Part shown: piece after piece, positions 1-19,178 of the stretch
How positions within the stretch are numbered: the first letter of the stretch is position 1
Layout: every line of letters starts with the position of its first letter
From: a virus
Lineage: Duplodnaviria > Heunggongvirae > Uroviricota > Caudoviricetes
DNA: 22,417 bases
Strand: one strand, 5' to 3'
Virus record (IMG/VR): IMGVR_UViG_2609459831_000017
Translations under genes and position numbers: made by a program
The notes under the pieces: model-generated
What the model was told of the DNA's origin: nothing
Databases searched by the model: none
Seen by the model: the letters and a program-made list of their open reading frames with translations, nothing else

Positions 1-1284
1 TTACAGACTTCTGGAAGGTTGCGCAGCTCTTACAACACGCGGTTGATCTTCCGCAGCGTCTTCCAGCGCACTTAAATCACGGTCTTTCACCTCTGGCATT
101 TTCAGCGCAGAGATTAAACCAATCACTGAATATGCCATGATCATAATGGCGATCGGATACCAGGATTCCGTCATGGTGCAGAAAATACCCGCCAGGATAG
201 GACCAAAACCGGAAGCGATAAGACCACCAATTTCTTTAGAAATAGCCATCCGGGTAAAGCGGTTTTTACAGCCGAACATTTCTGCCATGGTAATGTTTTC
301 CAGAGCAAATAATCCCAGCACCGCACAGTTATGAATCACAATCAGTGCAACCATAATGGTGCTCGGGGCATAGCTTTTATCTACAATGATAGAAAGCATT
401 GGCCATGCCAGCACAATCGCGGAGGTATTCATAATAATATACGGGATCCGGCGACCAATTTTATCGGATAACCAACCAAGGAACGGAATGGTCATAAAGC
501 CGAGAATCGAACTGATCATCAATGCATCTGTTGGAATTGCTTTGTTAAACAATAACGTCTGCACTAAATAGCCTGCAAGGAAAGTCTGAATTAACTCGGA
601 GTTACCCGCCTGACCAAAACGCAGCCCTGTTGCCAGCCAGAAGGATTTGCTCTGGAACATGCTACCAGCAGGTGCAGGTTTTGCTGTCGGTTGGTTACTG
701 TCGTTAACCTTCTCAAAGACCGGGCTTTCTTTCAGATTCATACGCAACCAGATAGCAAAGACCATCACGACAACGCTCGCCAGGAACGGTATACGCCATC
801 CCCACGCCAGCAGTTCCTCTTTACTGAGAATGAAGAACATAAAGGCCCAGATTGCCGTTGCGCTCAAGGTTCCGCAGTTAGTTCCCATAGCCACAAATGA
901 GGAGATAATTCCGCGCTTACCTTTTGGCGCATATTCCGCCAGCATCGTACCGGCACCGGAAATTTCCGCACCTGCACCCAACCCCTGAATAATACGCAAC
1001 GTCACCAGCAAGATGGGTGCAAAAACACCAATCTGTGCATAGGTCGGTAACACACCAATTAAGGTGGTACAGATCCCCATCATGGTGATGGTAATAAAGA
1101 GCACTTTTTTACGCCCTATTCTGTCGCCCATTTTGCCGAAAATAAATGCTCCGACAATACGCGCCACATAACCTGCACCGTAGGTTCCCATTGCCAGAAT
1201 TAACGCCATTGCCGTTGATGATTCAGGAAAAAATATTTCATGAAACACTAACGCTGCGCCGAGCGAATATAACTGGAAATCCAT
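1..1284 (-). CDS. ydfJ: MFS transporter (metabolite:H+ symporter type), probably N-terminally truncated by the prophage insertion
   Basis: 427-aa ORF with ATG at 1282-1284 and TAA at 1-3. Multi-pass hydrophobic profile; the MFS loop 2-3 motif G-x-x-x-D-R-x-G-R-K (GKMGDRIGRKK) sits at residues ~50-60, leaving room for only one helix ahead of it. Confidence 0.85.
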   Translation of the reverse strand: MDFQLYSLGAALVFHEIFFPESSTAMALILAMGTYGAGYVARIVGAFIFGKMGDRIGRKKVLFITITMMGICTTLIGVLPTYAQIGVFAPILLVTLRIIQGLGAGAEISGAGTMLAEYAPKGKRGIISSFVAMGTNCGTLSATAIWAFMFFILSKEELLAWGWRIPFLASVVVMVFAIWLRMNLKESPVFEKVNDSNQPTAKPAPAGSMFQSKSFWLATGLRFGQAGNSELIQTFLAGYLVQTLLFNKAIPTDALMISSILGFMTIPFLGWLSDKIGRRIPYIIMNTSAIVLAWPMLSIIVDKSYAPSTIMVALIVIHNCAVLGLFALENITMAEMFGCKNRFTRMAISKEIGGLIASGFGPILAGIFCTMTESWYPIAIMIMAYSVIGLISALKMPEVKDRDLSALEDAAEDQPRVVRAAQPSRSL

Positions 1285-1886
1285 AATTCACAGGTGTTTT
1301 TTCCCATCCTGTGGTTTCCTTGGCGTTTTCTAGGTTTTTTCAGATAGTTGCATTTTTTAAAAAGCATCCTAAGTTCGATCTCAGTGTCTATCTGGGGCCT
1401 ATTTCTGTCCCATATATGCCCCAAAAAAACTCCCCAACAGATAAGTAGTTTTTTCATGGATTTATGCGTAAAATCAAGAACGGCTGGAAATCATTCAATA
1501 CTCACACTATCGAAAAATTTACCAGCCAACCGCAGCACGTTCTTGCATAAGGCGTGTCTGCGGTTTTTCAACTATTCAGATACATCACTCCCATCACATT
1601 CATTCCTCCGCATCAAAGGCATATAGGCTATATCACCTTGATATTTTTCTTTTTCAGATAAAAACTGTTATCTATGTATACTTTTAAACCCAATCCGTGT
1701 AGAGTCTCTGCATAAGATAGTTTGCAGTTGCCGCTTCAGCTTGCGCCATAACCGCCTGATTTTTGCTGCCACCTGTTAGCATTCCTGTATACCTGAAACG
1801 ACAATGTTTATCTACGAACTTTAAGAACACCCAAGATAAAAATTGTCAACTATATCATATATAACACATTACTAATTCGAGGCTAT

Positions 1887-2000
1887 ATGAACAGCATACT
1901 GATAATCACTTCTCTCCTTATCATATTCAGCATTTTTAGTCATGCCCTAATAAAATTAGGGATTGGCATATCCAATAACCCAGACAAAACCGATGTATAA
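1887..2000 (+). CDS. candidate small hydrophobic protein (37 aa, [37 protein letters not shown])
   Basis: ATG at 1887 preceded by GAGG at 1879-1882, TAA at 1998-2000. One predicted transmembrane helix plus a polar tail. Below the ORF-track cutoff; translated by hand. Confidence 0.3.
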
Positions 2001-2068
2001 GTCAACATATCCTGAATCAGACATACAATATCGCAATGAAAATCAATAATATTTTAAGGAATATCTTC

Positions 2069-2302
2069 ATGAAATCAAAAGACACCCTAAAGTGGTTCCC
2101 TGCGCAGCTTCCTGAAGTAAGAATTATCCTATGGGATGCTGTAGTGGAAGTAGCAAAACAGGGAAGACCTATCAATACCAGAACATTGCTTGATTACATT
2201 GAAGGAAACATAAAGAAAAAATCATGGCTGGATAACAAAGAATTATTACAAACAGCGATATCAGTTCTTAAAGACAACCAAAATTTAAATGGTAAAATGT
2301 AA
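2069..2302 (+). CDS. ydfK: YdfK/YnaE-family prophage protein (cold-shock-associated, function unknown)
   Basis: 77-aa product from ATG 2069 (MKSKDTLKWFPAQLPEV...) with AAGGA 9 nt upstream. Matches recalled K-12 YdfK/YnaE; the track ORF starts 11 codons earlier at 2036. Confidence 0.8.
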   Translation: MKSKDTLKWFPAQLPEVRIILWDAVVEVAKQGRPINTRTLLDYIEGNIKKKSWLDNKELLQTAISVLKDNQNLNGKM

Positions 2303-2618
2303 TATAATAAACTTACTTTTTTATCATTTTTCCACTTTAACAACATTTTGCTCCACTTTTCCACGACCAAACAACTTAAAATCTGGTTAAAATAACACGA
2401 AACACTATTCTTCTTCCTTGAGTCCGCCCGGAACTCGAAAAACAAACCGAGTTAAAGCCATTTTTCACAAAATCGATTTTGGGTCTCACCAAAATTACGG
2501 GGTTGCATACGCATTCGTTTATTTTCGAACGTGTACATACAAATATGCACAAAAATAATCAAAATTATTTTCTGCGATGCATTATGATATGAACACCAAT
2601 TTCGTATAGAGTCTCACT

Positions 2619-3209
2619 ATGTCTCGAATTTTTGCTTACTGTCGGATATCAACGCTGGATCAGACCACCGAAAATCAACGCCGGGAAATCGAAAGTGCAG
2701 GTTTTAAAATCAAACCTCAGCAAATAATCGAAGAACACATTAGCGGCTCAGCAGCAACCAGTGAGCGTCCTAGTTTTAACCGGTTGCTTGCTCGCCTGAA
2801 ATGTGGTGATCAATTGATTGTGACAAAACTGGATCGCCTTGGTTGTAATGCAATGGATATCAGGAAAACAGTGGAACAACTGACCGAAACAGGTATCAGA
2901 GTGCATTGCTTAGCATTGGGGGGCATTGACTTGACCAGTCCAACAGGAAAAATGATGATGCAAGTAATTTCAGCAGTTGCTGAATTTGAACGAGACCTTT
3001 TACTTGAACGCACTCATTCCGGGATAGTAAGAGCCCGCGGCGCAGGGAAACGTTTTGGTCGACCACCTGTGTTAAATGAAGAACAGAAACAGGTGGTATT
3101 CGAACGAATTAAGTCAGGTGTAAGTATAAGTGCCATTGCCCGGGAATTCAAAACCTCGCGGCAAACCATTTTAAGAGCCAAAGCAAAACTTCAGACACCT
3201 GACATATAA
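2619..3209 (+). CDS. pinQ: serine recombinase, DNA invertase (Pin/Gin/Hin family)
   Basis: 196 aa. N-terminal resolvase motif with catalytic Ser in YCRISTLDQ and a C-terminal helix-turn-helix; close match to recalled PinQ/PinE/Gin. Confidence 0.9.
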
Positions 3210-3306
3210 AAAATAATCTCGGTGTGAGATGCTTTACGTCTTCCAAGCCCCCTTCCTTGCCGTAAATGGAAAGATACATCTAATTAAAGAATTTATATGT
3301 TTTACC

Positions 3307-3882
3307 CTACGGCAGTGCTGGCCATTCAATATCCTGTGCAGTTGACGTATCAACACGGTTCAGCAATACCCGATACTTTTTCCATGCTTCCAGCAACGAG
3401 ATTTCTTCCTCCGTTGCAATTTCCAGATCTGCAGCATCCTGAAGCGGCGCAATATGCTCACTGGCTACCTGCATCAGGTTGTTTTTTGTTTCTTCCGCCT
3501 CCCGGATCCGGAACAGTTTTTCTGCTTCCGTATCCTTCACCCAGGCTGTGCCGTTCCACTTCTGAAACTCCCCTTCCGGCGATAACCAGGTAACATTTTT
3601 CGGTAACGGACCGAGTTCAGAAATAAATAACGCGTCGCCGGAAGCCACGTCATAAACCGTTTTACCCCGATGATCTTCAACGAGATGCCACGATGACTCA
3701 TCACTGTTGAAAACAGCCACGAAGCCAGCCGGAATATCTGGCGGTGCAATATCGGTACTGTTTGCTGGCAGACCTGTATGAGGCGGAATATATGCATCAC
3801 CTTCACCAATAAATTCATTAGTTCCGGCCAGCAGATTATAAATTGTTATGGTCCGTGGTTGTTCACTCATTCTGAATGCCAT
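3307..3882 (-). CDS. tfaQ: tail fiber assembly protein
   Basis: 191 aa; matches recalled TfaQ/lambda Tfa. Its start overlaps the stf stop (TAATG). Confidence 0.85.
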
Positions 3883-6800
3883 TATGCAAGCCTCACAATA
3901 TAGTTAAATGCGATGTTTTTGACGGTGTTTTCCGCGTTACCAGCAGCGTTAACGGTGATGGTGTGTCCATGTGAGCCAATCGCAACGGAGTGCGTATGAG
4001 CACCAATACCGACAGTATGTGCGTGTGCACCTGCGCTTGCAGCAGTACCCGATACAGAGTGCGTATGAGCGCCTGCAGAAGAAGTGTTAACACTGTATTT
4101 AGAATAATCAGGTGATCCACTTCCCGGAGCACCACTGGAACCACCTGAAACAAATGTCATCGAATGGGTATGTGCACCGGCTGAAGCAGCCGTACCGCTA
4201 ACACTATGGGTATGTGCACCAGTGTTATTCGTGGATTTAGTGCCGTAATCAAACGATGATGTGGTTTTCGTCCCCAAATCCGTACTGGATGCGCTGGCGC
4301 TGTGGGTGTGCGATTTAATGCCGTCCTGTTCCTGAGACAATACGGCACGACCACTGGCGGGCTTGCCCTTAATCGTCCAGCCACGCATATCAGGAATAAC
4401 GCCTGACGGATAAGCCACTGCAAGTTTCGGGTATGCAGATTTGTCAAAAGTCTGCCCCTGCATCAGGGCATAGCCAGACGGAACGGTATCTGATGGCCAC
4501 GGGATTGGTGCGCCGACTGGGTAGCTTTCTGGTGGAAGATTTTTCGAGGTATAAACTTCTGCCCAGTCATCCTCAAAACCATAACCGTCTCTTGAAGAAC
4601 GGTAGAACAGACCACCATTTCTGTAATGCGCCTTCATCTGCAAGGTCCGGCAACTTCCGACTCCGGTATAGAAGTTAACCAGAATATAGCTGTCGCCAGA
4701 GCGGGTGACATTGTAAGCACCTGATTCGGCATTCCAGGGAACGCCACCATCCGCATCGGCATATGTATCCGTTGCCCTTCTGGCAAAAGCAGCCACATGC
4801 GCGGCGGTTAAAGTAATATCTCTGGAACCATCAAACTCAACACCAGAAACCAGTCTTGGCGTTTGCAGCTTTGTTGCTGTTAATGCATTACCGTTCAGAC
4901 TTGCGGACAGTTTGGTTCCAATAACCAGTTCGCCGGTTGCGTTATAAATAGCAAACGGTCTTAATGTATTCCAGCCACCATAAACATCACCTTGATTGGT
5001 AAGCAGCAGGTAAGTTTTAGCGCCATCATTACGCCATAATGCACCATACTCCCCACCTATCATTCGAATCTGATTACCACCACGCGCTACAATTTCGTCT
5101 GTGGCAAAAAGTTTTTTGCACGACAAATTATCGTTAACGATTAACGAATGAGACTCATAAAAACCACGCCCACTCTTAAAATCAAGGATAACGTCCGCCG
5201 CGATACATTCAGTCGCTGGATTTGTTGCCCCAAACTTATAGGTCGTATCATTAACAACGAGATCAGCACCAGGTGCGGATATTGACAGGCCATCTTCGAT
5301 AAACGCAAAAACAGGGAAAGCAGCGCCATCAACATAGAACACAGAGCGCAAATCATCGCCCTTATTACTCATCATTATTGAGTGGATGGCTCGTTCATTG
5401 TTTTGATATTGCCAGAACATTCCATAAGCATAACGCCCCCTGTCAGTCCAGCCACCAGGCATAACAAATCCGTTAAACTCGCAGTTATTCATCGGATCGC
5501 CTGCGGTTCGCGTTGCCGTGGTGATAATGACCCTTGATGCCAGTTCGCTTACTGAGCCAGCAGAACGCATAACAACAACAGGGTAATATTTTCCAGATGT
5601 TGCACCTGCAGGAGCGTTAACCCGCACATAACGCATACCACGCTTATCAGCAAAGTCTGTTTTACTGACCGCGTTAATGTTGTTCAGGAAGCGTCCCTTA
5701 TCGGGTATATCAGTGCCGTTCTGGTCTTTCTGCAGACGTTTCTCTGCATTGTCATAGGCTGATTTTACTGCCTTTGGCGTTGCCGCCAGCGTTTCAGACG
5801 TACTGTTGGTCGCACTGCTGAGCTGTACTATCCCCTTTTTCGTCGTGCTCGCATCCTCAAGCGCCACGGCGGATGCAATATCCTCTGCCCGTTTTGCTGC
5901 TGTCTCGGCGCGCGTTGCCGCGGATTCCGCCGTACTTTTGCTCTGAGCTGCCGCCGTCGCACTGCCAGCTGCCTCTGTCGCCTTCGTGGATGCCGTCGTG
6001 GCGCTGCCCTTCGCTGCTGACGCCTGTCTGGTCGCCTCATCTTTTGAAGCAGACGCCGATGATGCCGATGACGCCGCCGAACTGGCTGACGATGCGGCAG
6101 CCGTTTTTGAGGATTCTGCGCTGGTTTCCGACGCTTTCGCGTTCGTTTCGGATGTCTTCGCTGCGGAAGCTGACCTCGCTGCTACCGTGGCCTGTTCAGT
6201 GGCTTCGCCAGCCTTCGTTGTGGCTGTTGAAGCGGATGATGCGGCGCTTTCTGCCGACTTTCCGGCAGCGGTGGCACTGGCTGAGGCCTGCCCGGCATTT
6301 GTTGACGCGGCGCTGGCAGATGAGGCAGCCGCTGTTTTTGAGTCTGCTGCTGCGGAGGCACTCTGTCCCGCTGCCGTCTCAGAAGACTTTGCGTTCGTCT
6401 CGGACGTTTTTGCCGCCTTCGCGGAAGTTCCTGCCGCTGTTGCCGAGGAGGCTGCACGACTGGCGCTCGAGGCTGCGCTCGTTTCTGATGATTTTGCCGC
6501 CTCTTTTGAAGCCGACGCATCCCTGGCTGAGGTGGCAGCTTCTGACGCTTTCGTGGTCGCGGTGGATGCAGAAGTGGCGGCTGATTGTTCTGACGCTGCC
6601 GCATTCGTTTCTGACGTTTTCGCCGCACCGGCACTGGTAGCCGCCGCGCTTTTTGAGGACTCTGCAGCGGCAGCACTTTTTGAGGCTTCAGTGGCCTTTG
6701 TTGATGCCGTTCCTGCGCTGGAAGACGCTGACTGAGCCGACGACGCGGCCTGTCCGGCTGACGTGCTGGCTGCACGTGCTGAATCTGCAGCATCAGTCGC

Positions 6801-7232
6801 ACGGGTTGCCGCCTCACTGGCAGATGTGCTGGCATCACTGGCTGACTTCTTTGCGGCTGCCGTGTTCTGTGCCACCACGGACGCGTTACGCGCCACCTCT
6901 TCCACCATCAGTTCAAAACGACGCAGTGCCTCCGGACGGGCATCATCCTCCGTCATGGCACCGAGAAAATCATTCAGCGTACCGGGTTGAGAATCTTCAT
7001 ACACGGTGATGGTCCCGGCATGTGACGGCGGGAATCCCTCCACCAACAGAATAACGCTGTACTGACCGTACTCAACGTCCATGCTGTAACGCCCGGCTTC
7101 ATCCGGATTTTCTGAGGCCAGCGTGTTCACCACCACAGTGGTACTGTTACGTTTTGCTTTCAGCTGGATTGTGCAGTTCTGTACCGGTTTTCCTGTGCCG
7201 TCTTTCAGTACACCTGAAATCTTTACTGCCAT
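3882..7232 (-). CDS. stfQ: side tail fiber protein, full length
   Basis: 1116 aa from ATG at 7230-7232 ([12 protein letters not shown]...) with GGGGTGA Shine-Dalgarno; the track ORF uses an upstream GTG at 7238. Conserved N-terminal baseplate-attachment region, long Ala/Ser/Thr-rich repeat block, and C-terminal His-rich GAHTHS repeats typical of lambda Stf/StfR. Confidence 0.85.
5885..6875 (-). repeat. imperfect tandem low-complexity coding repeats (Ala/Ser/Thr-rich) inside stf
   Basis: Reiterated motifs ([18 protein letters not shown]) in the Stf product. The GC-rich repeat DNA produces long artefactual ORFs in other frames on both strands of the track. Confidence 0.6.
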
Positions 7233-7234
7233 AT

Positions 7235-7381
7235 TCACCCCACAAAAAAGCCCGCCTGAACCGGCGGGCTGTCATAACACTGTGTTACCTGGCTAATGGC
7301 CATTGCGGCGGCACCGGGCACCGCCGTTTTGCTGATACGGCTGAGGTTTTCAACGGCCTGCTCAAGACCTTTTATGGCCAT
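7235..7381 (-). pseudogene. remnant of lambda tail gene Z (first ~29 codons only)
   Basis: Minus-strand ATG at 7379-7381, 12 nt downstream of the FII stop, translates MAIKGLEQAVENLSRISKTAVPGAAAMAI, matching the recalled lambda gpZ N-terminus, then diverges into unrelated sequence and stops at 7235-7237. Confidence 0.6.
7243..7270 (-). terminator. predicted intrinsic terminator immediately upstream of the stf ribosome-binding site
   Basis: 8-bp GC-rich stem (7249-7256 pairing 7263-7270) with a 6-nt loop, followed on the minus strand by TTTTTTG. Confidence 0.45.
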
Positions 7382-7392
7382 ACATCCCCCTT

Positions 7393-7746
7393 TCAGCGGC
7401 GACGGTTAACGGCAGGCGGTACGCCCCGTCCAAGCCAGAGATGACAACTTCCGCCATCATCCGGCGAAACCCGATCTACCCAGAAATTTTCCTCACCGAT
7501 GGTCAGCGTGTCTCCACGCCGCAGCTGCCGCACCTCATCAGTCCGGACAAACAGGGACGGGCTGGAGCCTTCAACGCGCACGCCCTGTCCGGCATAGCTG
7601 ATATTTTCAGGGTCATCAAAAACACCACGTATCACAGCACCGGACTGCTCACCGGATGTCATGGTGGCTGACGTTCCCATGTACCCGCGTATCGTTTCAT
7701 CGGCGCGGGCAATGGCAGCATCGAACAGGTTATCGAAATCAGCCAC
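7393..7746 (-). CDS. FII: head-tail joining protein FII
   Basis: 117 aa (MADFDNLFDAAIARADETIRGYMG...VNRRR), near-identical to recalled lambda gpFII. Confidence 0.9.
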   Translation of the reverse strand: MADFDNLFDAAIARADETIRGYMGTSATMTSGEQSGAVIRGVFDDPENISYAGQGVRVEGSSPSLFVRTDEVRQLRRGDTLTIGEENFWVDRVSPDDGGSCHLWLGRGVPPAVNRRR

Positions 7747-7757
7747 AGCGCCTCCCG

Positions 7758-8156
7758 TTATTGCATTCTGGCCAGGCCGCGCGCTGTCATTTCAGCTGAC
7801 ACACCGGCAGAGACACGAAACGCCGTTCCCGGCAGCACAAATGCCACAGGTTCATCCCGCGTGGCGTGAAGTGCATCAGTATGCAGCGTCACCAGTGCCA
7901 CGACCGTGACCAGTTCAGACGTATCCAGAATCACGGTATCCGGCTGCGCTGATCCCACCTCATTTTCATGTCCGGTCAGCACATTTTCCCGGCTGAGAGG
8001 GGTGTCCTGACCGGCAGTTTCATCCGTGTCATCAAGCTCCTCTTCCAGCTCTGCCACACGGAGCGCCAGTTCTTCTTTCGTCCCCGTCAGGCTGACATCA
8101 CGGTTCAGTTGTTCACCCAGCGAGCGGAGACGGGCAATCAGTTCATCTTTCGTCAT
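7758..8156 (-). CDS. FI: DNA packaging protein FI
   Basis: 132 aa from ATG at 8154-8156 (MTKDELIARLRSLGEQLN...), matching recalled lambda gpFI; the track ORF extends 13 codons upstream to a GTG. Confidence 0.85.
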   Translation of the reverse strand: MTKDELIARLRSLGEQLNRDVSLTGTKEELALRVAELEEELDDTDETAGQDTPLSRENVLTGHENEVGSAQPDTVILDTSELVTVVALVTLHTDALHATRDEPVAFVLPGTAFRVSAGVSAEMTARGLARMQ

Positions 8157-8197
8157 GGACTCCTCCACAGAGAGAAAATGGCCCCGAAGGGCCATGA

Positions 8198-8674
8198 TTA
8201 CGCCAGTTGAACGGCCACGAACTCATCAGGATCAGCCAGCAGCATCAGCGGTGCTGACTGAATCATGGTGAACTCTCGCGCCGGATCGCCGGATGTCTTC
8301 CAGTTTTTCGGATAACGGGGAGACGCATTAATACCCTCACTCAATGCATCCGCATCCTGAATACAGCCATAGGTGCGCAGACCGCGTGCATGAGTGTTAC
8401 CCAGCACCATCGTGTTGTCCGGCAGGAAGTTCTTTTTGACGCCGTTTTCCACGTACTGTCCGGAATACACGACGATGGCCACATCGCCATACATCCCCTT
8501 ATAGGACACCGCTTTACCCAGGTCTTTCACCGCTGTCTCCAGCTCGGAATGAGAGCCACGACGGGTATCCAGCTTCTCCCTGACGGCTTTGAAGGAACGG
8601 AACAGCGCCCAGCCTTTCGGATCGAACACGATGATATTCACCACACCGCTGGCGTTCAGCGCGTAGGCTTCGAT
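8198..8674 (-). pseudogene. C-terminal fragment of major capsid protein E (about 158 codons), no native start
   Basis: Translation IEAYALNASGVVNIIVFDPKGWALFRSF...VAVQLA matches the C-terminal portion of recalled lambda gpE. The frame continues upstream past 8674 into unrelated codons, offset by one from the A' frame. Confidence 0.8.
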
Positions 8675-9906
8675 ACGCGCATTTCGTAGCGGTCCAGCTG
8701 GGAGTCGATACCGGCGGTCAGGTAAGCCACACGGTCAGGAACGGGCGCTGAATAATGCTCTTTCCGCTCTGCCATCACTTCAGCATCCGGACGTTCACCG
8801 ATTTTCGCTTCCCACGTCTCACCGAGCGTGGTGTTCACGAAGGTTTTACGTTTTCCCGTATCCCCTTTCGTCTTCATCCAGTCTTTGACAATCTGCACCC
8901 AGGTGGTGAACGGACTGTACGCCGTCCAGATGTGAAAGGTCACACTGTCAGGCGGTTCAATCTCTTCACCGGATGACGAAAACCAGAGAATGCCATCACG
9001 GGTCCAGATCCCGGTCTTTTCGCAGATATAACGGGCATCAGTAAAGTCCAGCTCCTGCTGACGGATGACGCAGGCGTTATGCTCACAGAGATAAAACACG
9101 CTGGAGGGGTCATCCGGCATCCATTTGAGGCCAAACGGCGTCTCTTTGTCGCCAAATTTAAGGTACTGCTCCTTCCCGCAGTGCGGGCAGGCAACATGAA
9201 AACGCATAAAATGCGGGGATTCACTGGCTGCACGCTCAATCTGGCAGGTGCCTCTCACTTTGGGCGTGGAGCCACGGATGGACTTTGGCCAGACCGAGCC
9301 TTCAATACGTTTGTCGCCAAGGAACGTCGGAGAGCCTTCCTGTTCAATATCCTCATCAAAGGCAGCAAGTTCATCATAACCCGCCACATCCACCGACTTT
9401 TCACGGTAGTTTTTTGCCGCTTTACCGCCCAGGCACCAGAAGCCACGACCATTGGTGAAACGCTTCATAGTGAGCGTGTTATCCCGGTGCTTTTTGCCAT
9501 ACCACGGAGCCAGCGCCAGCAGCGACGGAATATCGCGGATGGTCGGCTCAACGTGGGTTTTCATAAAGTTCTCGGCATCACCATCCGTCGGCAACCAGAT
9601 AAGTGTGTTGCGCTGCTTATGCTCTATAAAGTAGGCATAAACACCCAGCAGCATTTTGGAATAACCGACACGGGCAGACTTCACCACATTCACCTCACGG
9701 ATGTAGTCGCTGCCCATCGCATTCATGATGGCCCGCTGAAAGGGCAGTGTTTCCCAGCGCCCTTCCTGGTATGCGGATTCTTTCGGGAGATAGTAATTAG
9801 CATCCGCCCATTCAACGGCGGTCTGTGGCTCCGGCCTGAACAGTGAGCGAAGCCCGGCGCGGACAAAATGCCGCAGCCTGTTAACCTGACTGTTCGATAT
9901 ATTCAC
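8656..9906 (-). pseudogene. terminase large subunit A, truncated after ~409 codons
   Basis: MNISNSQVNRLRHFVRAGL...DRYEMRV matches the N-terminal two-thirds of recalled lambda gpA (641 aa), then 5 unrelated codons (SKPTR) and TGA at 8656-8658. The C-terminal region is absent. Confidence 0.85.
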
Positions 9907-10426
9907 TCAGCAACCCCGGTATCAGTTCATCCAGCGCGGCTGCTTTGTTCATGGCTTTGATGATATCCCGTTTCAGGAAATCAACATGTCGGTTTTCCAG
10001 TTCCGGAAAACGCCGCTGCACCGACAGGGGGATCCCGTCGAGAATACTGGCAATTTCACCTGCGATCCGCGACAGCACGAAAGTACAGAATGCGGTTTCC
10101 ACCACTTCAGCGGAGTCTCTGGCATTTTTCAGCTCCTGTGCGTCGGCCTGCGCACGCGTAAGTCGATGGCGTTCGTACTCAATAGTCCCTGGCTGGAGAT
10201 CTGTCTCGCTGGCCCGCCGCAGTTCTTCAACTTCCCGGCGCAGCTTTTCGTTCTCAATTTCAGCATCCCTTTCGGCATACCATCTTATAACGGCGGCAGA
10301 GTCATAAAGCACCTCATTACCCTTGCCACCGCCTCGCAGAACGGGCATTCCCTGTTCCTGCCAGTTCTGAATGGTACGGATACTCGCACCGAAAATGTCA
10401 GCCAGCTGCTTTTTGTTGACTTCCAT
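9881..10426 (-). CDS. nohQ: terminase small subunit (Nu1 homolog)
   Basis: 181 aa (MEVNKKQLADIFGASIRTIQNWQEQGMPVLRGGGKGNEVLYD...), near-identical to recalled lambda Nu1, including the winged-helix DNA-binding N-terminus. Its 3' end overlaps the A' start. Confidence 0.9.
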   Translation of the reverse strand: MEVNKKQLADIFGASIRTIQNWQEQGMPVLRGGGKGNEVLYDSAAVIRWYAERDAEIENEKLRREVEELRRASETDLQPGTIEYERHRLTRAQADAQELKNARDSAEVVETAFCTFVLSRIAGEIASILDGIPLSVQRRFPELENRHVDFLKRDIIKAMNKAAALDELIPGLLSEYIEQSG

Positions 10427-10603
10427 TGTTCATTCCACGGCCAAAAACAGAGAAAGGAAACGACAGAGGCCCAAAAGTTCGTTTTCAGCACCTGTCGTTT
10501 CCTTTCTTTTTAGGGGGTATTTTAAATAAAAACATTAAGTTACGACGAAGAAGAACGGAAACGCCTTAAACCGGAAAATTTTCATAAATAGCGAAAACCC
10601 GCG
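10427..10603 (-). promoter_or_regulatory. cosB-like terminase binding region
   Basis: Lies between cosN and the Nu1 start. Perfect 16-bp inverted repeat AGAAAGGAAACGACAG (10441-10456) and CTGTCGTTTCCTTTCT (10482-10497), resembling lambda R elements. Confidence 0.6.
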
Positions 10604-10615
10604 AGGTCGCCGCCC
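10604..10615. other. cosN cohesive-end site
   Basis: Plus strand AGGTCGCCGCCC is the reverse complement of GGGCGGCGACCT, the recalled 12-nt lambda cohesive end, positioned ~190 nt upstream of Nu1 as in lambda. Confidence 0.75.
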
Positions 10616-10814
10616 CGTAACCTGTCGGATCACCGGAAAGGACCCGTAAAGTGATAATGATTATCATCTACATATCACAACGTGCGTGGAGGCCATCAAA
10701 CCACGTCAAATAATCAATTATGACGCAGGTATCGTATTAATTGATCTGCATCAACTTAACGTAAAAACAACTTCAGACAATACAAATCAGCGACACTGAA
10801 TACGGGGCAACCTC

Positions 10815-11048
10815 ATGTCAACGAAGAACAGAACCCGCAGAACAACAACCCGCAACATCCGCTTTCCTAACCAAATGATTGAACAAATTAACATCGCTCT
10901 TGAGCAAAAAGGGTCCGGGAATTTCTCAGCCTGGGTCATTGAAGCCTGCCGCCGGAGACTGTGCTCAGAAAAAAGAGTTTCTTCTGAAGCAAACAAAGAA
11001 AAGAGTGACATTACTGAATTGCTCAGAAAACAGGTCAGACCAGATTGA
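10815..11048 (+). CDS. ynfO: small prophage protein, YnfO/YlcI (DUF3950)-like
   Basis: 77 aa (MSTKNRTRRTTTRNIRFPNQMIEQINIALEQKGSGNFSAWVIEACRRRL...) next to cos, as recalled for K-12 Qin. Confidence 0.7.
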   Translation: MSTKNRTRRTTTRNIRFPNQMIEQINIALEQKGSGNFSAWVIEACRRRLCSEKRVSSEANKEKSDITELLRKQVRPD

Positions 11049-11105
11049 AGCAATTTAGATAATCGTGCAGACTACGCCCCCTCATATCACATGGACGGTT
11101 TATCT

Positions 11106-11516
11106 ATGGATCAGGTAGTCATTTTTAAACAAATATTTGATAAAGTTCGAAACGATTTAAACTATCAATGGTTTTATTCTGAGCTAAAACGTCACAATGT
11201 CTCACATTACATTTACTATTTAGCCACAGAGAATGTTCATATTGTATTAAAAAATGATAATACAGTGTTATTAAAGGGCCTAAAAAACATTGTGTCTGTC
11301 AAATTTTCAAAGGATAGGCATCTTATAGAAACGACCTCTAATAAGCTGAAATCCAGAGAGATCACATTTCAGGAATACAGAAGAAACCTTGCTAAAGCAG
11401 GAGTTTTTCGGTGGGTTACAAATATCCACGAACAAAAAAGATATTACTATACCTTTGATAATTCATTACTATTTACTGAAAGCATCCAGAAAACTACACA
11501 GATCTTACCACGCTAA
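11106..11516 (+). CDS. ydfO: YdfO-like protein (DUF1398)
   Basis: 136 aa from ATG 11106 ([28 protein letters not shown]...); the track ORF starts 5 codons earlier at 11091. Matches recalled K-12 YdfO. Confidence 0.75.
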
Positions 11517-11667
11517 ACCATAACGTCCGGCTTCTCTCACTCCTGAGCCGGACTGCATTGGTTTAATAAAAACCATCAACAATTGTGATTTAGATATTCG
11601 GAACCATTCAAATATAACAAAACCCCGTAAAAACGAGGTTTATGGATAAATTTTATTATTGAATACA

Positions 11668-11841
11668 TCAGATTAAATTAATCTTGACATCATAGCTTTC
11701 AAGACCCGTCATTTTTTCCCGTGCGGTAAACTGAATACTGGTAACTTCTTTCCCGGTCTTTTTCTTAAGTTCAATAATTTTTTTTGTTATATATTCAGAA
11801 ATATCTGCTTCTGCTTTTGTTTTTAAGTTTTCAATATTCAT
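11668..11841 (-). CDS. gnsB: GnsB-like small protein
   Basis: 57 aa (MNIENLKTKAEADISEYITKKIIELKKKTGKEVTSIQFTAREKMTGLESYDVKINLI) with AGAGGA 4-5 nt upstream; an in-frame ATG lies one codon earlier. Below the track cutoff; translated by hand. Confidence 0.7.
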   Translation of the reverse strand: MNIENLKTKAEADISEYITKKIIELKKKTGKEVTSIQFTAREKMTGLESYDVKINLI

Positions 11842-12012
11842 CATTTCCTCTTTTAGTCTGTTATGACTTTCCAGTTACACAGTAAGTCGATTATATGGTG
11901 CAAACGTGTAAAAGATAAGATGAAACATCGCAATAATCAACATACGATAGTCTAAATTTTACACAAACAGACAAAGAGAATTTTCCTGAATTATCAATGC
12001 AATAGCATCAAA

Positions 12013-12243
12013 TCAACTCAAGAGCCTTATTGCTGCTTCCAGAATTTCTTCTGAAGTAACATGTCGATCCGCGGCTACATAAATGACTTTATGATCTCCG
12101 GTCAGAGATGGAAACCCTGCGGCCATTACAGTAAGGTGTGTTTTTTCGCCATTTGGATATTCACGCATGATGGTGTTAACTCCAGTCATCGCTGGCACTA
12201 CCACTGCTGGTTCAGAGTTAAAAAAAACTATGATTTTTTTCAT
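12013..12243 (-). CDS. ynfN: small prophage protein, tentatively YnfN-like
   Basis: 76 aa from ATG at 12241-12243 (MKKIIVFFNSEPAVVVPAMTGVN...); the track ORF extends to a TTG at 12285. Assignment rests on position between gnsB and cspI; the sequence itself was not recognised. Confidence 0.45.
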   Translation of the reverse strand: MKKIIVFFNSEPAVVVPAMTGVNTIMREYPNGEKTHLTVMAAGFPSLTGDHKVIYVAADRHVTSEEILEAAIRLLS

Positions 12244-12284
12244 GATGTTACCGTAGTATGTGAGTATCCATCGAATAGACACCA

Positions 12285-12308
12285 AGCAAAAAAGCTCCCG
12301 AAGGAGCC
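12285..12308 (-). terminator. predicted intrinsic terminator with UUCG tetraloop
   Basis: Minus-strand GGCUCC-UUCG-GGAGCU stem-loop followed by UUUUUUGCUU, about 200 nt downstream of the cspI stop. Confidence 0.45.
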
Positions 12309-12514
12309 TTCATTTTCACTTTTTTAAATCCAACGACAGACGGCTGGCATTTAAGTATTGTGAAATATTATCAAATGTAATCATCATTGATTTACAAAAG
12401 ATACATTTTGCCCCGAAAGGATTCATGTCAGAAACATCAAAAGATGATGTTCTATACTGGGAACCATGACAACACGGGCATCTAAAGTGAATATGGTTTG
12501 TAATATTGTCTACC

Positions 12515-12727
12515 TCAAAGCGCCACTACATGAACAGCGGCAGGACCTTTAGGTCCGTTCTCAATACCAAATTCAACTTCCTGATTCTCAGTTAATGTTT
12601 TGAAATCGTTGCTCTGAATTGCTGAGAAATGGACAAACACATCTTTGCTGCCATCTTTCGGCGTGATGAAACCAAAACCTTTTTCAGGGTTAAACCATTT
12701 CACTAAACCAGTCATTTTGTTAGACAT
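12515..12727 (-). CDS. cspI: cold-shock protein, CspA family
   Basis: 70 aa ([38 protein letters not shown]...) with RNP1/RNP2 motifs (KGFGFI, VFVHF). Confidence 0.9.
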
Positions 12728-13089
12728 AATTATTACCTTTTGAAGAAATTAGCCCTTGGGCAGAATGGTCCGAAAAAAAATATCAGAGAGAAAAACCAAC
12801 AAGGAAATCTCAAGAGGTACAAATAATAAAATTATAACAATGACTGCTTCAGATAAATTTGTAACAAACCAGAACACCATTAACGCATGATTAACCACCC
12901 ATAGCAAGGATTACTTTTGTAAAGAAAAACACAGCAATGAAAGAATAGCTTTATTTATTAATAAAACGTGTCATTCTGATTAAGACCTTTTATCTTACCC
13001 TTAAGATTTCAGGAATTTTGGCTCATGGAAGAGTCCTTTTTATTTAAATTTTACATTCCGCGATGTAAATGTTCCGATTTAATATTACC

Positions 13090-14113
<1,024 letters not shown>

Positions 14114-14117
<4 letters not shown>

Positions 14118-14425
14118 AGATATTTATGATGAGGACGCTCGTGCTTATTGGCAGGATTTTCAATCTTAAAGGAGTACTGATGCTGCAGATAAGACTCAAC
14201 TTTTTCTGACAATTTTTCTGCTACTTCCAGGAAGACTTGCCGGACGCTCCTTCTGGCTGCTGCCTCATAAAACTCCAGCGCAGCTCCTTCAACACGGTCC
14301 ATGGCGACATCCAGGTCAAAAATTTCACCGTCAAAGCGTTCTTTGTCCTGTAAGGCTACAGTTACCGTAACTTTATTCTCAAAATTACGGACTCCTTTCA
14401 CAACCAGTTCATAGTCTTGAGTCAT
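14114..14425 (-). CDS. ydfR: YdfR-like protein (DUF1327), inserted between holin and endolysin
   Basis: 103 aa (MTQDYELVVKGVRNFENKVTVTVALQDKERFDGEIFD...), same length as recalled K-12 YdfR. Confidence 0.7.
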
Positions 14426-14429
14426 TGGA

Positions 14430-14645
14430 TTACTCTCCTCTCGCAGCCTTACGCCTGTCTTCTTTAATCTTGAAATAAAGATTTGTCAGATACGTCAGCA
14501 GGCCAAAAACCAGGCTACCCAGCACACCGATTGCAGCCCACTGTGACGGAGTTACTTTATCGAGTAACTGCAATGCCCAGAAACCAGCATTACCCGCCGA
14601 TGTGCCATAGGCAACACCTGTTGTTAACTTATCCATTGATTTCAT
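14430..14645 (-). CDS. essQ: class II holin (pinholin, S21-like) with dual start MKSMDK
   Basis: 71 aa from ATG at 14643-14645 ([53 protein letters not shown]...): two transmembrane domains and a charged C-terminus. The track ORF extends 25 codons upstream. Confidence 0.85.
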
Positions 14646-14864
14646 ATCCTCACCCCGATGTACACGGATGGTGCAATATGTTTGAAAAGATCGGAGTCTA
14701 CGGGGTAGTTTTGACAGCACACGTTGTTCTCAACGGCGCTAAAAAAACATACACATTAAAAATGTGGGTAATTATTTTGAAAGAAAGTCATATATAAAAT
14801 AATAATACGAGAAATGTTTTCATATTTAGTGTACTGTATACGGCCATTTATACAGGAAAAGCCT

Positions 14865-15035
14865 ATGTCAGAACGTAAAAACTCAAAATCACGCCGTAAT
14901 TATCTCGTTAAATGTTCCTGCCCAAACTGCACCCAAGAGTCAGAACACAGTTTTTCAAGAGTACAAAAAGGTGCCCTTTTGATCTGCCCTCATTGCAACA
15001 AAGTATTCCAGACAAATCTTAAAGCTGTAGCCTGA
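14865..15035 (+). CDS. small zinc-ribbon-like protein (56 aa)
   Basis: ATG at 14865 with AGGA 7 nt upstream. Cys clusters C-x-C-x2-C (CSCPNC) and C-x2-C (CPHC) in MSERKNSKSRRNYLVKCSCPNCTQESEHSFSRVQKGALLICPHCNKVFQTNLKAVA. Opposite strand to the late genes. Confidence 0.5.
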   Translation: MSERKNSKSRRNYLVKCSCPNCTQESEHSFSRVQKGALLICPHCNKVFQTNLKAVA

Positions 15036-15087
15036 TTGATTTTATTAGTAACAAGTATTTTTTATATTTTAATAATATATTTAAAGC

Positions 15088-15117
15088 AGATAATAAAAAA
15101 CCCGCCTGAGCGGGTTT
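15088..15117 (-). terminator. predicted intrinsic terminator (mainly minus strand)
   Basis: AAACCCGC-CTGA-GCGGGTTT hairpin; on the minus strand it is followed by TTTTTTATTATC. Confidence 0.5.
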
Positions 15118-15398
15118 GAGATTGTGGTGCTTTTTGTGGGAGTCATCCACTTACGCACTTTGTTTTGCCATGCCAGCAGTTAGCTTCTGCTGTAAAACTA
15201 TTCATGCAGCAAACCTGCACTTCACCACAATGGTTAGCATACTTTTCCTGATTAAGATTTTGCCAAATATGCTAGCCATTGTTTCATGTATTGGACCTCC
15301 TTACTTTTTATTAAAGAGATCCAATATTCACTACTCTGTCCGTATCTCTACTCAGGCATCAGCCTTCTTCGTTATCGTATACAGACGAGCGATGAATT

Positions 15399-15614
15399 TT
15401 AATCAGTAATGATGACATTTGCTGCTGCAGGACCTTTAGCACCACTCTCTATAGAGAAGGTAACCTTTTGACCTTCAAATAAGGTTCGATAATTATCATT
15501 CTGAATCGCAGAAAAATGCACAAACACATCTTTACTACCATCAACAGGAGAAATAAAGCCGAAACCTTTATCAGCGTTAAACCATTTTACTAAACCAGTC
15601 ATTTTATTTGACAT
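15399..15614 (-). CDS. cspB: cold-shock protein, CspA family
   Basis: 71 aa ([53 protein letters not shown]...). Confidence 0.9.
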
Positions 15615-15914
15615 TCTACATTCCTTAACTTGAGCCTTTCGGCATAAATGGTTTGCATAACAGAAACGACTTCGTACTTAATTGGAGAGACTCAAAGAAG
15701 GAATAAGTGAATAACACCTGAAATGAGAACTGCTTTAGTAAACTACTTCGTATATCGTCTGTTCTTCAAACCGACGCAATCATTAACGCATAGTTGAACA
15801 TATGAAGCAATGTTTATTTTAGACATCCAGCCATCTTCAACCCCATCAAAAAACTATAGCTTTCTTCAGGAACGTGTGTATAGTGCGCCAAGTTATCAGT
15901 ATTAAGGAATTTTT

Positions 15915-16127
15915 TTGTCCCGTAAAATGACAGGAATTGTCAAAACCTTTGACGGCAAAAGCGGCAAGGGTCTTATCACCCCATCCGATGGTCGTATCGA
16001 TGTCCAGCTTCATGTTTCAGCGCTCAATCTCCGCGATGCAGAAGAAATTACCACCGGATTACGCGTGGAATTTTGCCGGATAAATGGTCTGCGTGGCCCT
16101 TCAGCTGCCAATGTTTACCTTTCATGA
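15915..16127 (+). CDS. cspF: cold-shock-domain protein, divergent CspA-family paralog
   Basis: 70 aa ([39 protein letters not shown]...). TTG start at 15915 with AGGA 7 nt upstream; the first ATG is 4 codons in. Confidence 0.85.
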
Positions 16128-16181
16128 GCTATATTAAAGCTTTAATTTCAGGCCCCATCGGATCACACATGGAGAGTTTTT

Positions 16182-16271
16182 ATGAATAACCCCGTCTGTC
16201 TTGATGACTGGTTGATTGGCTTTAAAAGCTTATGCTGTACTTTGGCCGTAATAGCTCTGCTAATAATATAA
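16182..16271 (+). CDS. candidate small hydrophobic peptide (29 aa, [29 protein letters not shown])
   Basis: ATG at 16182 with GGAGAG 5 nt upstream, 55 nt after the cspF stop and before the terminator at 16419-16452. Translated by hand; could be fortuitous. Confidence 0.2.
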
Positions 16272-16418
16272 TAAGCAGACTCATTGTGTTTAGGGACATT
16301 GTACTGGAAGAAAACATTTTAAACATCAGGCAAATAACCAAGTCACCAGCTAAATAATAAGTTAACAGACATGAGTCCCGGGATGAGATTCAACATTACC
16401 ATTGCCCCATTTAAAGCA

Positions 16419-16452
16419 CAAAACCCGCTCATCAGCGGGTTTTCTACTTTTT
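16419..16452 (+). terminator. predicted intrinsic terminator downstream of cspF
   Basis: AAACCCGCT-CATC-AGCGGGTTT hairpin followed by TCTACTTTTTC. Confidence 0.55.
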
Positions 16453-16548
16453 CTTAACGTCGGGTATACAAAGCCCATCGTTGAAAAAATTTTATCCATA
16501 TTTTTTGAAAAATGCAAACATCATGTCGCCATCTTCAGCAAAAATCAT

Positions 16549-17301
16549 TTATCTCGTCACCTTCCTCAATTGCGCTTCCGCGTATGCTTCTTCCTGCCAG
16601 CACTTTGTTACCAGTTTACCAATGACGTCCGCATACCCCTTATACCACTGATAATCGGTCAGGTCTGGTACCAGCTTCTGGACATGACGTCGTGCCAGCG
16701 TGGTCGGTAAACGACTAAACCGGTTTCCATTACAACGCCCACAAATCTTATATACCGGTACGCCATGAAACCGGGTTCTTTTTTCATCCAGAACAATCCC
16801 TTTACCCTTACACCCTCTGCACGCTGTGCTGGCTTCGCCCTTACCATGGCAATGCTGACATAGTTCCTTCACCCATTCTTCCTTGATTACAGATTCCCCG
16901 CGTCTGTAGTGTTTCACCACTTCGCGCAATACATTATAAAATCCCGTACCTGAACAATGCTCACAGCGAGCCTTACTTGCCGCAGACCTGGAGTAATCAG
17001 CAAAGGCAAAACTCACGAGGTAAGGAATAATCTGTAACCGGATTTCTTCACTCAATTTGTTCAATGTCGGGTTATCCAGTGCCATCGCGTAATTTAGCAG
17101 GCCTTCAATCGCAAACTGAGGGTCCTGAACACCAACTTTTGCCAGAAATAAGGCCAACCCAAGTGGTGCTTTCGACTGCACCATCCCCTGCGCTGCCATT
17201 ACATCCGTAATTGTTAAACAACCGGTGCCTGTCGCTGGAGCGTCATCGCTCAATTTTGGAGATTTTGGGGAGTAATATTTTGGTAAGGCTTCAAGGTTCA
17301 T
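16549..17301 (-). CDS. quuQ: late-gene antiterminator Q (phage 21/82 type)
   Basis: 250 aa from ATG at 17299-17301 (MNLEALPKYYSPKSPKL...) with GGAG upstream. Cys/His-rich zinc-binding region (CEHCSGTG, CQHCHGKG, CRGCKGKG, CGRCNG). The track ORF extends 10 codons upstream. Confidence 0.85.
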   Translation of the reverse strand: MNLEALPKYYSPKSPKLSDDAPATGTGCLTITDVMAAQGMVQSKAPLGLALFLAKVGVQDPQFAIEGLLNYAMALDNPTLNKLSEEIRLQIIPYLVSFAFADYSRSAASKARCEHCSGTGFYNVLREVVKHYRRGESVIKEEWVKELCQHCHGKGEASTACRGCKGKGIVLDEKRTRFHGVPVYKICGRCNGNRFSRLPTTLARRHVQKLVPDLTDYQWYKGYADVIGKLVTKCWQEEAYAEAQLRKVTR

Positions 17302-17314
17302 GCTCGTTCTCCAC

Positions 17315-18364
17315 TTACGCCAGTACGCCAATTGCCAGCGCGCGATCGATAAAACGAAATATCAGCTCCAGTTGGGAGCCATACTTATCTTCAAATGCCA
17401 CTGTATCCGTATGCAGCTCGTTGTGATGCTTTCTGCACAAAGGCAACACAAAGAGATCATGTGCTTTTGTTCCCATTCCGCCCTGCCCGTGACCAATCAG
17501 ATGATGCGGATCGTCGGCTGGCATACCGCAGCAAGCACACGGCTGTGTCTTAACCCAACGTGTGTATTTCTCCTTAACCCAGCGGCGACGTTTAGGCAGC
17601 TTCATGAAAGATTCCGGAGACTCTGGATCAACGGTGATGCTTACCACCGTCTTTTCCTGTGGTGATTTTTGTTGCTGGTGGGCGTAAGGCAACGGTGCAA
17701 GATTTTTTGTGCGTTGTTTCAATATGCTGGTGGCGGTCTGCTCTCCCGGTACGATGTCGCTTTCGCGGTACACCGAGCAGATTTTTTCCGCTGGTAATCC
17801 CAGCGAACGACGCGATACAGCCTCAGGTAGTGCATCCACCACCTGATTGCAGACCGCCCACCAGGATAATTCAGCCAAAGATAATTCCCGCTCCTGCGTA
17901 CCGCTTATTGCGTGACGGATGACGTCAATCACCCATGCTGTCAGATTTTGTTGAGCAAGCAGCTCCAGTGATTCCGATGTCTGGTCACGCAGTTGGTTGT
18001 CGCAGTGCCAGCACAACACCATTGCGCCGGTACCATAACGGTGAATGACTGTTTCAGTGTGATGGTAATCGCCATTAGGCCACTGGCAGGATGTAACATG
18101 ACGTAATAGCCAGTCGGACAATGCGCCAACGCCGCCAGCAGCACGAATCACCCGTTCGTTACTAAAAAACGGCAGCAATGTTTTGTCTTCCGCCAGCGGC
18201 TGGCGAACGGCAGGAACGACTCCGGATGGCAGATTACGCATGCTTTTTGGTTCCGGTTCCACCAGCACTCGAGGATTATGAAATATCTGTATGGATTCAC
18301 GGCCCGGCTTAAGGACCACCAGCCCAAGCTCAGGCACCAGAACAGGTCTAAGTAATACCCGCAC
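17315..18364 (-). CDS. ydfU: YdfU-like protein (DUF968) with C-terminal HNH-like Cys/His motif
   Basis: 349 aa from GTG at 18362-18364, 1 nt below the rem stop; an in-frame extension reaches 18403 (362 aa). C-terminal motif QPCACCGMPADDPHHLIGHGQGG...CRKHHNELH. Ends 14 nt upstream of the Q start. Confidence 0.7.
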   Translation of the reverse strand: MRVLLRPVLVPELGLVVLKPGRESIQIFHNPRVLVEPEPKSMRNLPSGVVPAVRQPLAEDKTLLPFFSNERVIRAAGGVGALSDWLLRHVTSCQWPNGDYHHTETVIHRYGTGAMVLCWHCDNQLRDQTSESLELLAQQNLTAWVIDVIRHAISGTQERELSLAELSWWAVCNQVVDALPEAVSRRSLGLPAEKICSVYRESDIVPGEQTATSILKQRTKNLAPLPYAHQQQKSPQEKTVVSITVDPESPESFMKLPKRRRWVKEKYTRWVKTQPCACCGMPADDPHHLIGHGQGGMGTKAHDLFVLPLCRKHHNELHTDTVAFEDKYGSQLELIFRFIDRALAIGVLA

Positions 18365-18365
18365 G

Positions 18366-18644: not shown

Positions 18645-18710
18645 CGGTTTTCTCCGGTGGCACGGTGTTACTCAGCGGGAGTTCAGCCCCGCGCAAGATT
18701 GTAGATGAGT

Positions 18711-18962: not shown

Positions 18963-19077
18963 CAGAATCCTTCCGGATAATTAGCTCTCCCCTTTAAGGG
19001 ACCATCCCTCTTATCCCTGCGCTCTACTTAAGTATTTTTGATTCTATTCCGGCACCGTCCAGAACTTCAAACGCGTT

Positions 19078-19110
19078 GAAAATAAAAACAAAAACCCGCC
19101 GAAGCGGGTT
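19078..19110 (-). terminator. predicted intrinsic terminator of the relB-relE-hokD operon
   Basis: Minus-strand hairpin AACCCGC-UUCG-GCGGGUU followed by UUUUGUUUUUAUUUUC. Confidence 0.55.
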
Positions 19111-19178
19111 AAGTGCGGGTGCGTTGAGGATGCCTGCCACATCAGAGGTGGCGAGGGATTTCTCCCCCGCCGGGTCTC

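Follow-up and report, generated by a model that had tools for sequence, protein, structure and literature searches.

A recurrent breakpoint at a TA dinucleotide of tail gene Z in lambdoid prophages, and the Z'-stf deletion scar of the Qin prophage in Escherichia coli 1303

Decay by deletion is a well-known feature of prophages, as are the persistence of the stf-tfa-pin segment in the cryptic elements Qin, Rac and e14 and the terminator that belongs to lom. In Int-promoted deletions of lambda, and in recombination by Cin and Gin at quasi-sites, one fixed specific site is joined to variable secondary sites; recombinases that need only 2 bp of identity include the serine recombinases, IntDOT of CTnDOT (with its GC rule) and the IS607-type serine transposases. 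The locus described here is a deletion scar in Qin at which a truncated tail gene Z (Z') meets the upstream region of the side tail fibre gene stf. That Z' is a pseudogene is already flagged by RefSeq; the unexpected feature is that its breakpoint recurs.

The window analysed, by which we mean the whole 22,417-nucleotide stretch of IMG/VR record IMGVR_UViG_2609459831_000017, is 100% identical, as the reverse complement, to the chromosome of the bovine mastitis isolate E. coli 1303 (NZ_CP009166.1). RefSeq annotates it as the Qin cryptic prophage inserted in ydfJ, and the expected site is indeed recognizable, with ydfJ truncated (window 1..1284), ydfK/ynfT on one flank and the dicB-side region on the other. 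The typical Qin gene set, i.e. dicB, relBE, hokD, cspB/F/I, ydfO, nohA, tfaQ and pinQ, is likewise annotated in NZ_CP009166.1 at 1774318-1815118. Along the minus strand the window reads quuQ/ydfT, cspF, cspB, essD, ydfR, rrrQ, rzpQ, cspI, gnsB, ydfO and ynfO, and continues with nohA, an A' pseudogene, an E' pseudogene, FI, FII, a 96-nt "phage tail protein" pseudogene, stf and tfaQ, beyond which RefSeq places pinQ, ydfK and the truncated ydfJ. The same Qin gene order is seen in VG888-46E9 and SCZE5. The 1303 copy presumably keeps more than the Qin of K-12, namely nohA, A', E', FI, FII, Z' and a full-length stf. The features of the window considered below are:

2619..3209, plus strand: pinQ, serine DNA invertase (ORF list, RefSeq, Pfam Resolvase and HTH_7)
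3307..3882, minus strand: tfaQ, tail fibre assembly gene (ORF list, RefSeq)
3882..7232, minus strand: stf, an intact gene for the side tail fibre, encoding 1116 aa when read from the ATG at 7232 (ORF list, RefSeq; 99.96% identity to the IS1-interrupted stf of VG888-46E9)
7233..7293, minus strand: spacer between lom and stf in its native form (lambda 19589-19649), with the terminator of lom and the ribosome-binding site of stf (aligned base by base with lambda and intact prophages, identical outside the hairpin)
7243..7270, minus strand: predicted intrinsic-terminator hairpin AGCCCGCC-GGTTCA-GGCGGGCT followed by TTTTTT, with the stem-loop at 7270..7249 (terminator scan)
7235..7381, minus strand: 48-aa chimeric ORF, Z(1-29) plus 19 residues from the lom-stf spacer, with its stop TGA at 7237-7235, 2 nt before the stf ATG (ORF list)
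7294..7381, minus strand: Z' remnant, comprising codons 1-29 and one further nt of Z, the gene for tail completion (lambda 7977-8064; aligned with lambda Z and undeleted Qin; RefSeq pseudogene "missing C-terminus")
7294..7297, minus strand: junction microhomology ATTA, single copy here and present at both parental endpoints (Z codons 29/30; lom stop TGA plus TTA)
7295-7294, minus strand: hotspot dinucleotide TA, equivalent to lambda 8063-8064, Z codons 29/30
7393..7746, minus strand: FII, head-tail joining, intact, 117 aa (ORF list; RefSeq WP_000753007.1; 98.8% identity to lambda FII)
8198..8674, minus strand: E', C-terminal remnant of the major capsid protein (RefSeq pseudogene, alignment to undeleted Qin)
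8656..9906, minus strand: terminase A' (N-terminal ~411 aa), cut by a second deletion (RefSeq pseudogene, alignment to undeleted Qin)
9881..10426, minus strand: nohA, Nu1-like small terminase, intact (ORF list, RefSeq)

A sequence-only reading of the window had taken the stretch downstream of FII for a deletion junction, at which the first ~29 codons of Z are followed on the minus strand by unrelated sequence carrying a terminator hairpin and the stf ribosome-binding site. Base-by-base alignment to lambda agrees: Z codons 1-29 are kept and are succeeded by the lom-stf spacer. Translation from the Z start ATG at 7381 yields MAIKGLEQAVENLSRISKTAVPGAAAMAI and then 19 further residues. A BLAST search against phages recovered lambda 7560-8064 at 98.8%, with the match ending exactly at the A of ATTA at window 7294, and a column-by-column comparison carries the Z identity through ..GGCCATTA (lambda 8064). 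From window 7293 downward the sequence is that of lambda 19589 onward, namely GCCAGGTAACACAGTGTTATGAC, the hairpin, TTTTTT, GTGGGGTGAAT and the stf ATG at 7232, with changes only in the hairpin. The right-hand parent in lambda reads ..TTCTGATTAGCC, in which TGA is the lom stop. The alignment places the breakpoint at window 7294, with a 4-bp microhomology, ATTA, that occurs in Z and again at the lom stop plus 3 nt and is left as one copy in the product, such that the last base of the lom stop codon may be the sole lom residue at the junction. The match to Z is no coincidence, given that these 96 nt are listed by RefSeq as a pseudogene, an incomplete copy of a "phage tail protein", and that Pfam Minor_tail_Z matches the ORF. 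As only residues 1-29 of a protein of ~190 aa are present, it is a remnant of gpZ rather than a member of that family, and the 48-aa ORF is probably a by-product without a function of its own.

In lambda coordinates the segment lost is 8065-19588 (11,524 bp). An actual undeleted reference is provided by VG888-46E9 (NZ_CP128581.1), in which Qin sits in the same place and has the full complement of genes from Nu1 to J together with lom and stf. Aligned to this copy, the window falls into four segments:

Window 21189..8673: 99.95% identity, after which ~4.7 kb is missing in 1303
Window 8675..7294: 99.86% identity, after which 11,579 bp is missing in 1303 (L008 25745..37323)
Window 7297..4904: 99.96% identity, after which there is an IS1 insertion, in VG888 only
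Window 4916..1: 99.65% identity, to the end of the window

Relative to this copy, 1303 has lost Z from codon 30 on, U, V, G, T, H, M, L, K, I, J and lom, and comparison with this 99.9%-identical undeleted Qin thus bears out the earlier proposal that the tail genes U through J and lom of lambda are missing. The near-identity on both flanks marks the deletion in 1303 as clean and evolutionarily recent, and this comparison of genome sequences shows the scar to be a real, single deletion of 11,579 bp in the Qin of E. coli 1303. In itself the scar is ordinary and documents a further decay step of a cryptic prophage that is already well known. The stf gene is full-length (1116 aa) in the more decayed Qin of 1303 and interrupted by IS1 in the structurally complete Qin of VG888-46E9 (L008 39714-40477); neither copy is a fully intact prophage. 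At the other end of the window similarity to the undeleted Qin stops at 21189 (window ~21190-22417 being dissimilar), and in this part RefSeq has an IS3 transposase that begins near 21255 and extends as far as the window does; together these indicate an IS3 inserted in the Qin early region of 1303 that is absent from VG888-46E9.

The ~4.7-kb gap represents a second deletion, by which W, B, C, Nu3 and D were lost along with the 5' end of the E gene. Its junction, A'::E', lies at 8673-8675 with the microhomology TAT and joins A' to the C-terminal 159 codons of E (ORF 8198..8644). The inability to build a tail despite the persistence of fibre genes, as previously proposed, is supported by the retention of stf, tfa and pin and by the RefSeq annotation of this prophage, which contains no tail-shaft or tail-tip gene elsewhere; given both deletions, the element can build neither heads nor tails.

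The terminator had been described as lying directly against the stf start. Its position stands, but it is the native terminator of lom rather than a product of the deletion. It is a G+C-rich hairpin followed by a U-run, with a stem of 8 pairs, 7 of them G-C, in the terminator scan; its RNA folds at -28 kcal/mol (z = -2.65) and the lambda counterpart folds equivalently. The central 6 nt read GGTTCA in 1303 vs GGAACC in lambda, and the 3' arm reads GGCGGGC vs GGTGGGC, giving a G-C pair here where lambda has G-T. Since lambda (whose stf is orf-401) and intact prophages have this hairpin at an identical distance from stf, it does not owe its place to the deletion; it is the terminator of the lom gene unit, a moron, and was retained. 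Every element of the sequence-only reading is supported, with refinements on the terminator, the head defect and the breakpoint.

The 1303 junction is present in one of 5,426 complete E. coli genomes, and the exact 48-aa ORF (P0001) occurs on 101 contigs of the protein collection and, by the look-up index, in 157 blocks of that collection; all six contexts that were read (6/6) are Qin in ydfJ. An artefact of assembly from the multiple lambdoid prophages of strain 1303 could be imagined, since 4-5 places in its genome match the query, but the 4-bp shared join is far too short for repeat collapse and the contigs bearing the identical ORF come from independent assemblies, which makes this explanation negligible. 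Judged from these sequence records, the junction is real and a lineage marker. Two draft genomes (L257, L259) combine the same Z'-stf junction with further leftward deletions, which leave either A' running to the FII stop position or ydfO almost directly before Z'. Such deletions beside a retained 1303 junction imply stepwise decay after the loss of the tail genes.

The same base of Z is also the end point of other deletions. In SCZE5 and its relatives (5 complete genomes) it is joined to the interior of lom, giving ..GGCCATTA|TCTTCAG, and intact lom at this point reads ..CGGGTA|TCTTCAG, so that the shared sequence is TA. The flanks of the SCZE5 type are 93.7% (left) and 89% (right) identical to those of the VG888/1303 type and its head-gene deletions differ, which indicates that it is an independent event and not the ancestor of the 1303 junction. 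A two-step origin of the latter, in which an ancestral Z'-lom' deletion of the SCZE5 type later lost its lom remnant between ATTA/TA repeats, could draw on the common Z breakpoint and on the ..ATTA and ..GATTA that flank the SCZE5 lom'. Against it, the 1303 flanks are 99.9% identical to the undeleted Qin rather than resembling those of SCZE5, with its divergent flanks and other head-gene deletions, and none of the 5,426 genomes was found to carry 1303-type flanks with a lom' remnant; we consider it very improbable.

The TA of Z codons 29/30 emerged as a recurrent, two-sided breakpoint. As in site-specific recombination, the crossover point is identical, at lambda 8063-8064, in at least 25 junction types (loci L002, L013, L029-L037, L040-L043 and L164), whose partners lie in Nu1, A, KilA-N, U, V, G, H, L, J, lom, stf and ash. 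The site can be written CGCAATGGCCAT-TA-ACCGCGTTGCTT, with the TA bordering a perfect 10-bp palindrome, AATGGCCATT. A search with the 48-aa ORF against 5.8 billion proteins, a survey that sees only junctions leaving an ORF of ~39 aa or more, returned 70 short Z-derived ORFs. About 26 of these are contig-end partials (13 stopping at codons 26-28) and ~10 are frameshifted Z. Among the ~27-30 true Z' chimeras, 19-20 diverge exactly after codon 29, with ~17 distinct partners, and every other break position in Z codons 1-84 was seen once or twice. The partners mapped from this survey lie in U, V, G, H, J, lom and stf, and four more types were read from contigs; partner contexts were read from related alleles rather than from the true parents.

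Pattern scans, which required an exact 19-nt flank, added further cases. In IMG/VR they gave 4 rightward and 4 leftward hotspot junctions among at least 120 intact copies. On the rightward side the partners are L (lambda 13438), the reverse strand of stf, an ash-like early gene and a fourth, unmapped sequence. In the leftward joins the right flank of Z (TAACCGCGTTGC..) follows a non-native base, with partners in Nu1 (..GAACTGA-TA), in terminase A (..GATGAGGA-TA), in KilA-N and in the other half of ash; the KilA-N case (L042 11331-12395) is an in-frame KilA-N'::'Z fusion that retains Z residues 28-190 and reflects a ~12-kb leftward deletion ending at the hotspot TA. Most matches of the metagenome and GTDB scans were chance hits in unrelated GC-rich genomes, only L011 and L013 being real; the search for copies of the Z left flank with a non-native base after it showed the metagenome contig L013 to join Z' to the 3' part of stf, again with TA shared. 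Small changes inside or beside the palindrome were also observed (P0058/P0061, P0018). In one of them an insertion of 2 nt (ATGG-TG-CC) throws Z out of frame; another is a tandem duplication in which Z codon 32 is linked back to CCGTTAACCG at the end of FII, a sequence similar to the CCATTAACCG of the hotspot.

Both products of an exchange at this point are preserved in the complete genome of TW14425 (L164, NZ_CP127265.1 1357950-1375420), in a prophage between prfC and yjjG. Here the Z'|ash join and the ash-'Z join occur 17.4 kb apart, the segment between them being inverted, with the result that head and tail genes are divergently oriented. Intact ash reads ..GAGCACG-TA-GTGCAG.. and the junctions read Z-left-TA-GTGCAG and GAGCACG-TA-Z-right, i.e. 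the inversion is perfectly reciprocal, with no base gained or lost. This is the one case in which reciprocal products, as expected of site-specific recombination, are documented at both ends. In a second inversion (L034) Z' is succeeded, in reverse order, by stf, lom, J, H-K and V-U. The TW14425 junctions also bear on the idea that a TA-target insertion sequence entered Z repeatedly and was later lost with flanking DNA, by excision of the IS-excision-enhancer type or by transposase-mediated adjacent deletion, leaving a clean TA. On this view the endpoint would be fixed, the partners to its left and right would vary and one TA would be left where they meet, and IS629 with IEE is an established case of IS-linked deletion in which one end is fixed. 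Yet no IS sequence is present in any of the more than 25 junction types, and both TW14425 junctions contain only Z and ash DNA, which implies that the intact Z site itself recombined; we therefore hold a lost insertion sequence to be improbable.

A more serious alternative is ordinary microhomology-mediated illegitimate recombination, by replication slippage or end-joining between the ATTA copies, with the recurrence stemming from a fragile or pause-prone site, namely the AT island adjoining the palindrome AATGGCCATT in GC-rich DNA. The presence of ATTA at both parental endpoints and once in the product is what it predicts, and for the 1303 junction taken alone the 4-bp ATTA fits such a deletion equally well. 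It is also favored by the other decay junctions of the same prophages (TAT, CAG, TCAGC, TT, a 12-nt imperfect repeat, T and C), which show ordinary, variable microhomology of 1-12 nt, by the three to four types that depart from the strict TA rule (P0036, P0046, P0049 and perhaps L031) and by a few breaks scattered 3-9 nt downstream of the Z TA.

The collective properties of the hotspot nevertheless argue against this alternative. Of the 15 rightward types for which an intact reference exists, 12 have TA in the partner exactly at the join, as do the two leftward types that have such a reference (Nu1 and A). Most events thus share only 2 nt, always the same, and longer homology is not enriched: homology beyond TA is confined to the 1303 junction (ATTA) and one other (TAAC), which is no more than chance. 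An apparent Z allele ATTAGCC, which would have given 7 bp of homology, was dismissed, as the BLAST extension to query position 510 had included a mismatch and Z alleles read ATTAACC. The Z site is used from both sides, and a base-perfect reciprocal inversion would be rare from template switching or end-joining. Single-strand folding at the hotspot (z = +0.36) was nothing special, and the lack of a stable DNA structure at the Z site speaks against a fragile-site origin. Finally, three other TA sites nearby gave no junctions in left-anchored scans of the same kind over the same collection: the TA of Z codon 15/16 (0 junctions), that of Z codon 37 (0 junctions) and the FII-end GTTAACCG (0 junctions in 113 native copies), which has the same right half as the hotspot and so excludes the right half-site TAACCG as sufficient. 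A further control, the M/L GGATATCC site, gave 1 junction among at least 120 intact copies, with a 5-nt GGATA homology. We thus judge microhomology-mediated deletion, inclusive of its fragile-site form, rather unlikely as the overall explanation.

The partners themselves show a weak dyad preference, GGN-TA-NCC(G). G occurs at -2 in 11 of 14 partners vs 36% of 746 structural-region TA sites (p ~0.0015, uncorrected for multiple tests), and at +5 in 9 of 14 vs 28% of structural-region TA sites (p likewise uncorrected).

Our overall interpretation, which we regard as reasonably probable, is that the 1303 scar is a single Qin deletion at a recurrent Z TA hotspot, likely produced by break-and-rejoin with a 2-bp TA overlap. 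The 1303 deletion would then have come from the same process that makes the Z TA hot. Our best guess is that this process is most likely a conservative break-and-rejoin reaction carried out by a recombinase or transposase-type enzyme, which would favor the Z site and accept almost any TA as partner; replication slippage appears less likely than such an enzyme-catalysed exchange. More tentatively, and as a possibility that we would not call probable, the Z TA may be the preferred substrate of an unrecognised conservative recombination activity of E. coli or of lambdoid prophages, with a 2-bp TA crossover and a promiscuous choice of partner, by which morphogenesis genes would be deleted or inverted time and again, the 1303 junction being one product. 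Enzymes that we presume would fit the hotspot are a serine recombinase, a heterology-tolerant tyrosine recombinase whose first exchange needs ~2 bp of identity, or a TA-specific transposase.

Several specific candidates were considered and set aside. By inspection the Z site appears to be unlike the sites of Xer, lambda Int or resolvases, and a Xer/dif-like or lambda-Int-like core showed, by eye, poor arm similarity and wrong predicted cleavage positions. A transposon-end model found no inverted copy of the Z end within the window. Subunit exchange by gyrase, with its 4-bp stagger, would by our reasoning predict CCA plus NTAN or TTAA, which mismatches the SCZE5 type CCATTATC. The Z site also lacks the 26-bp dyad of Pin/Hin/Gin sites (..AAACC-NN-GGTTT.., with an AA or GA core). 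The crossover site pix of the Pin invertase is CCTTCTCCCAAACCAA, with the core AA (PMC12529663), and compared by eye with CGCAATGGCCAT-TA-ACCGCGTTGCTT it shows no match and a different core.

Prophage inactivation is usually pictured as random mutational erosion, and a sequence-directed, possibly enzyme-catalysed hotspot would change this picture. If the hotspot is directed, it would cut off the tail (or head) module and explain why many lambdoid remnants end at Z', and it would offer a directed route for disarming and domesticating lambda-like prophages. A single TA in a lambda lysogen would be a simple assay target. The literature searched, which comprised open-access texts and hence gives weak evidence of absence, yielded no description of a Z-gene hotspot.

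Set against the described systems, the Z events appear to resemble those of recombinases with a 2-bp identity requirement in their reciprocal conservative exchange, 2-bp identity and tolerance of heterology beyond it; no such recombinase is known to act on lambda Z or to be general in E. coli. Like the Int-promoted deletions and the Cin/Gin quasi-site events, the hotspot combines a fixed crossover with many partners, yields deletions as well as inversions and has a short obligatory identity. Unlike them, the Z point is neither an att nor a pix/cix site, and its 2-bp TA differs from the 7-bp overlap of lambda and from the AA core of pix; no cognate recombinase is known. The sequence before stf matches the lom moron of lambda in its hairpin, T-run and distance to the stf ATG, but in 1303 lom itself is gone and the terminator now follows the 48-aa chimeric ORF. 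With respect to the decay deletions of the cryptic lambdoid prophages of E. coli (Qin, Rac, DLP12), the 1303 element is Qin itself, and it conforms to their pattern in that morphogenesis genes are lost, stf-tfa-pin is kept and decay proceeds stepwise across strains. It differs in that its breakpoint in Z coincides to the base with those of many independent events.
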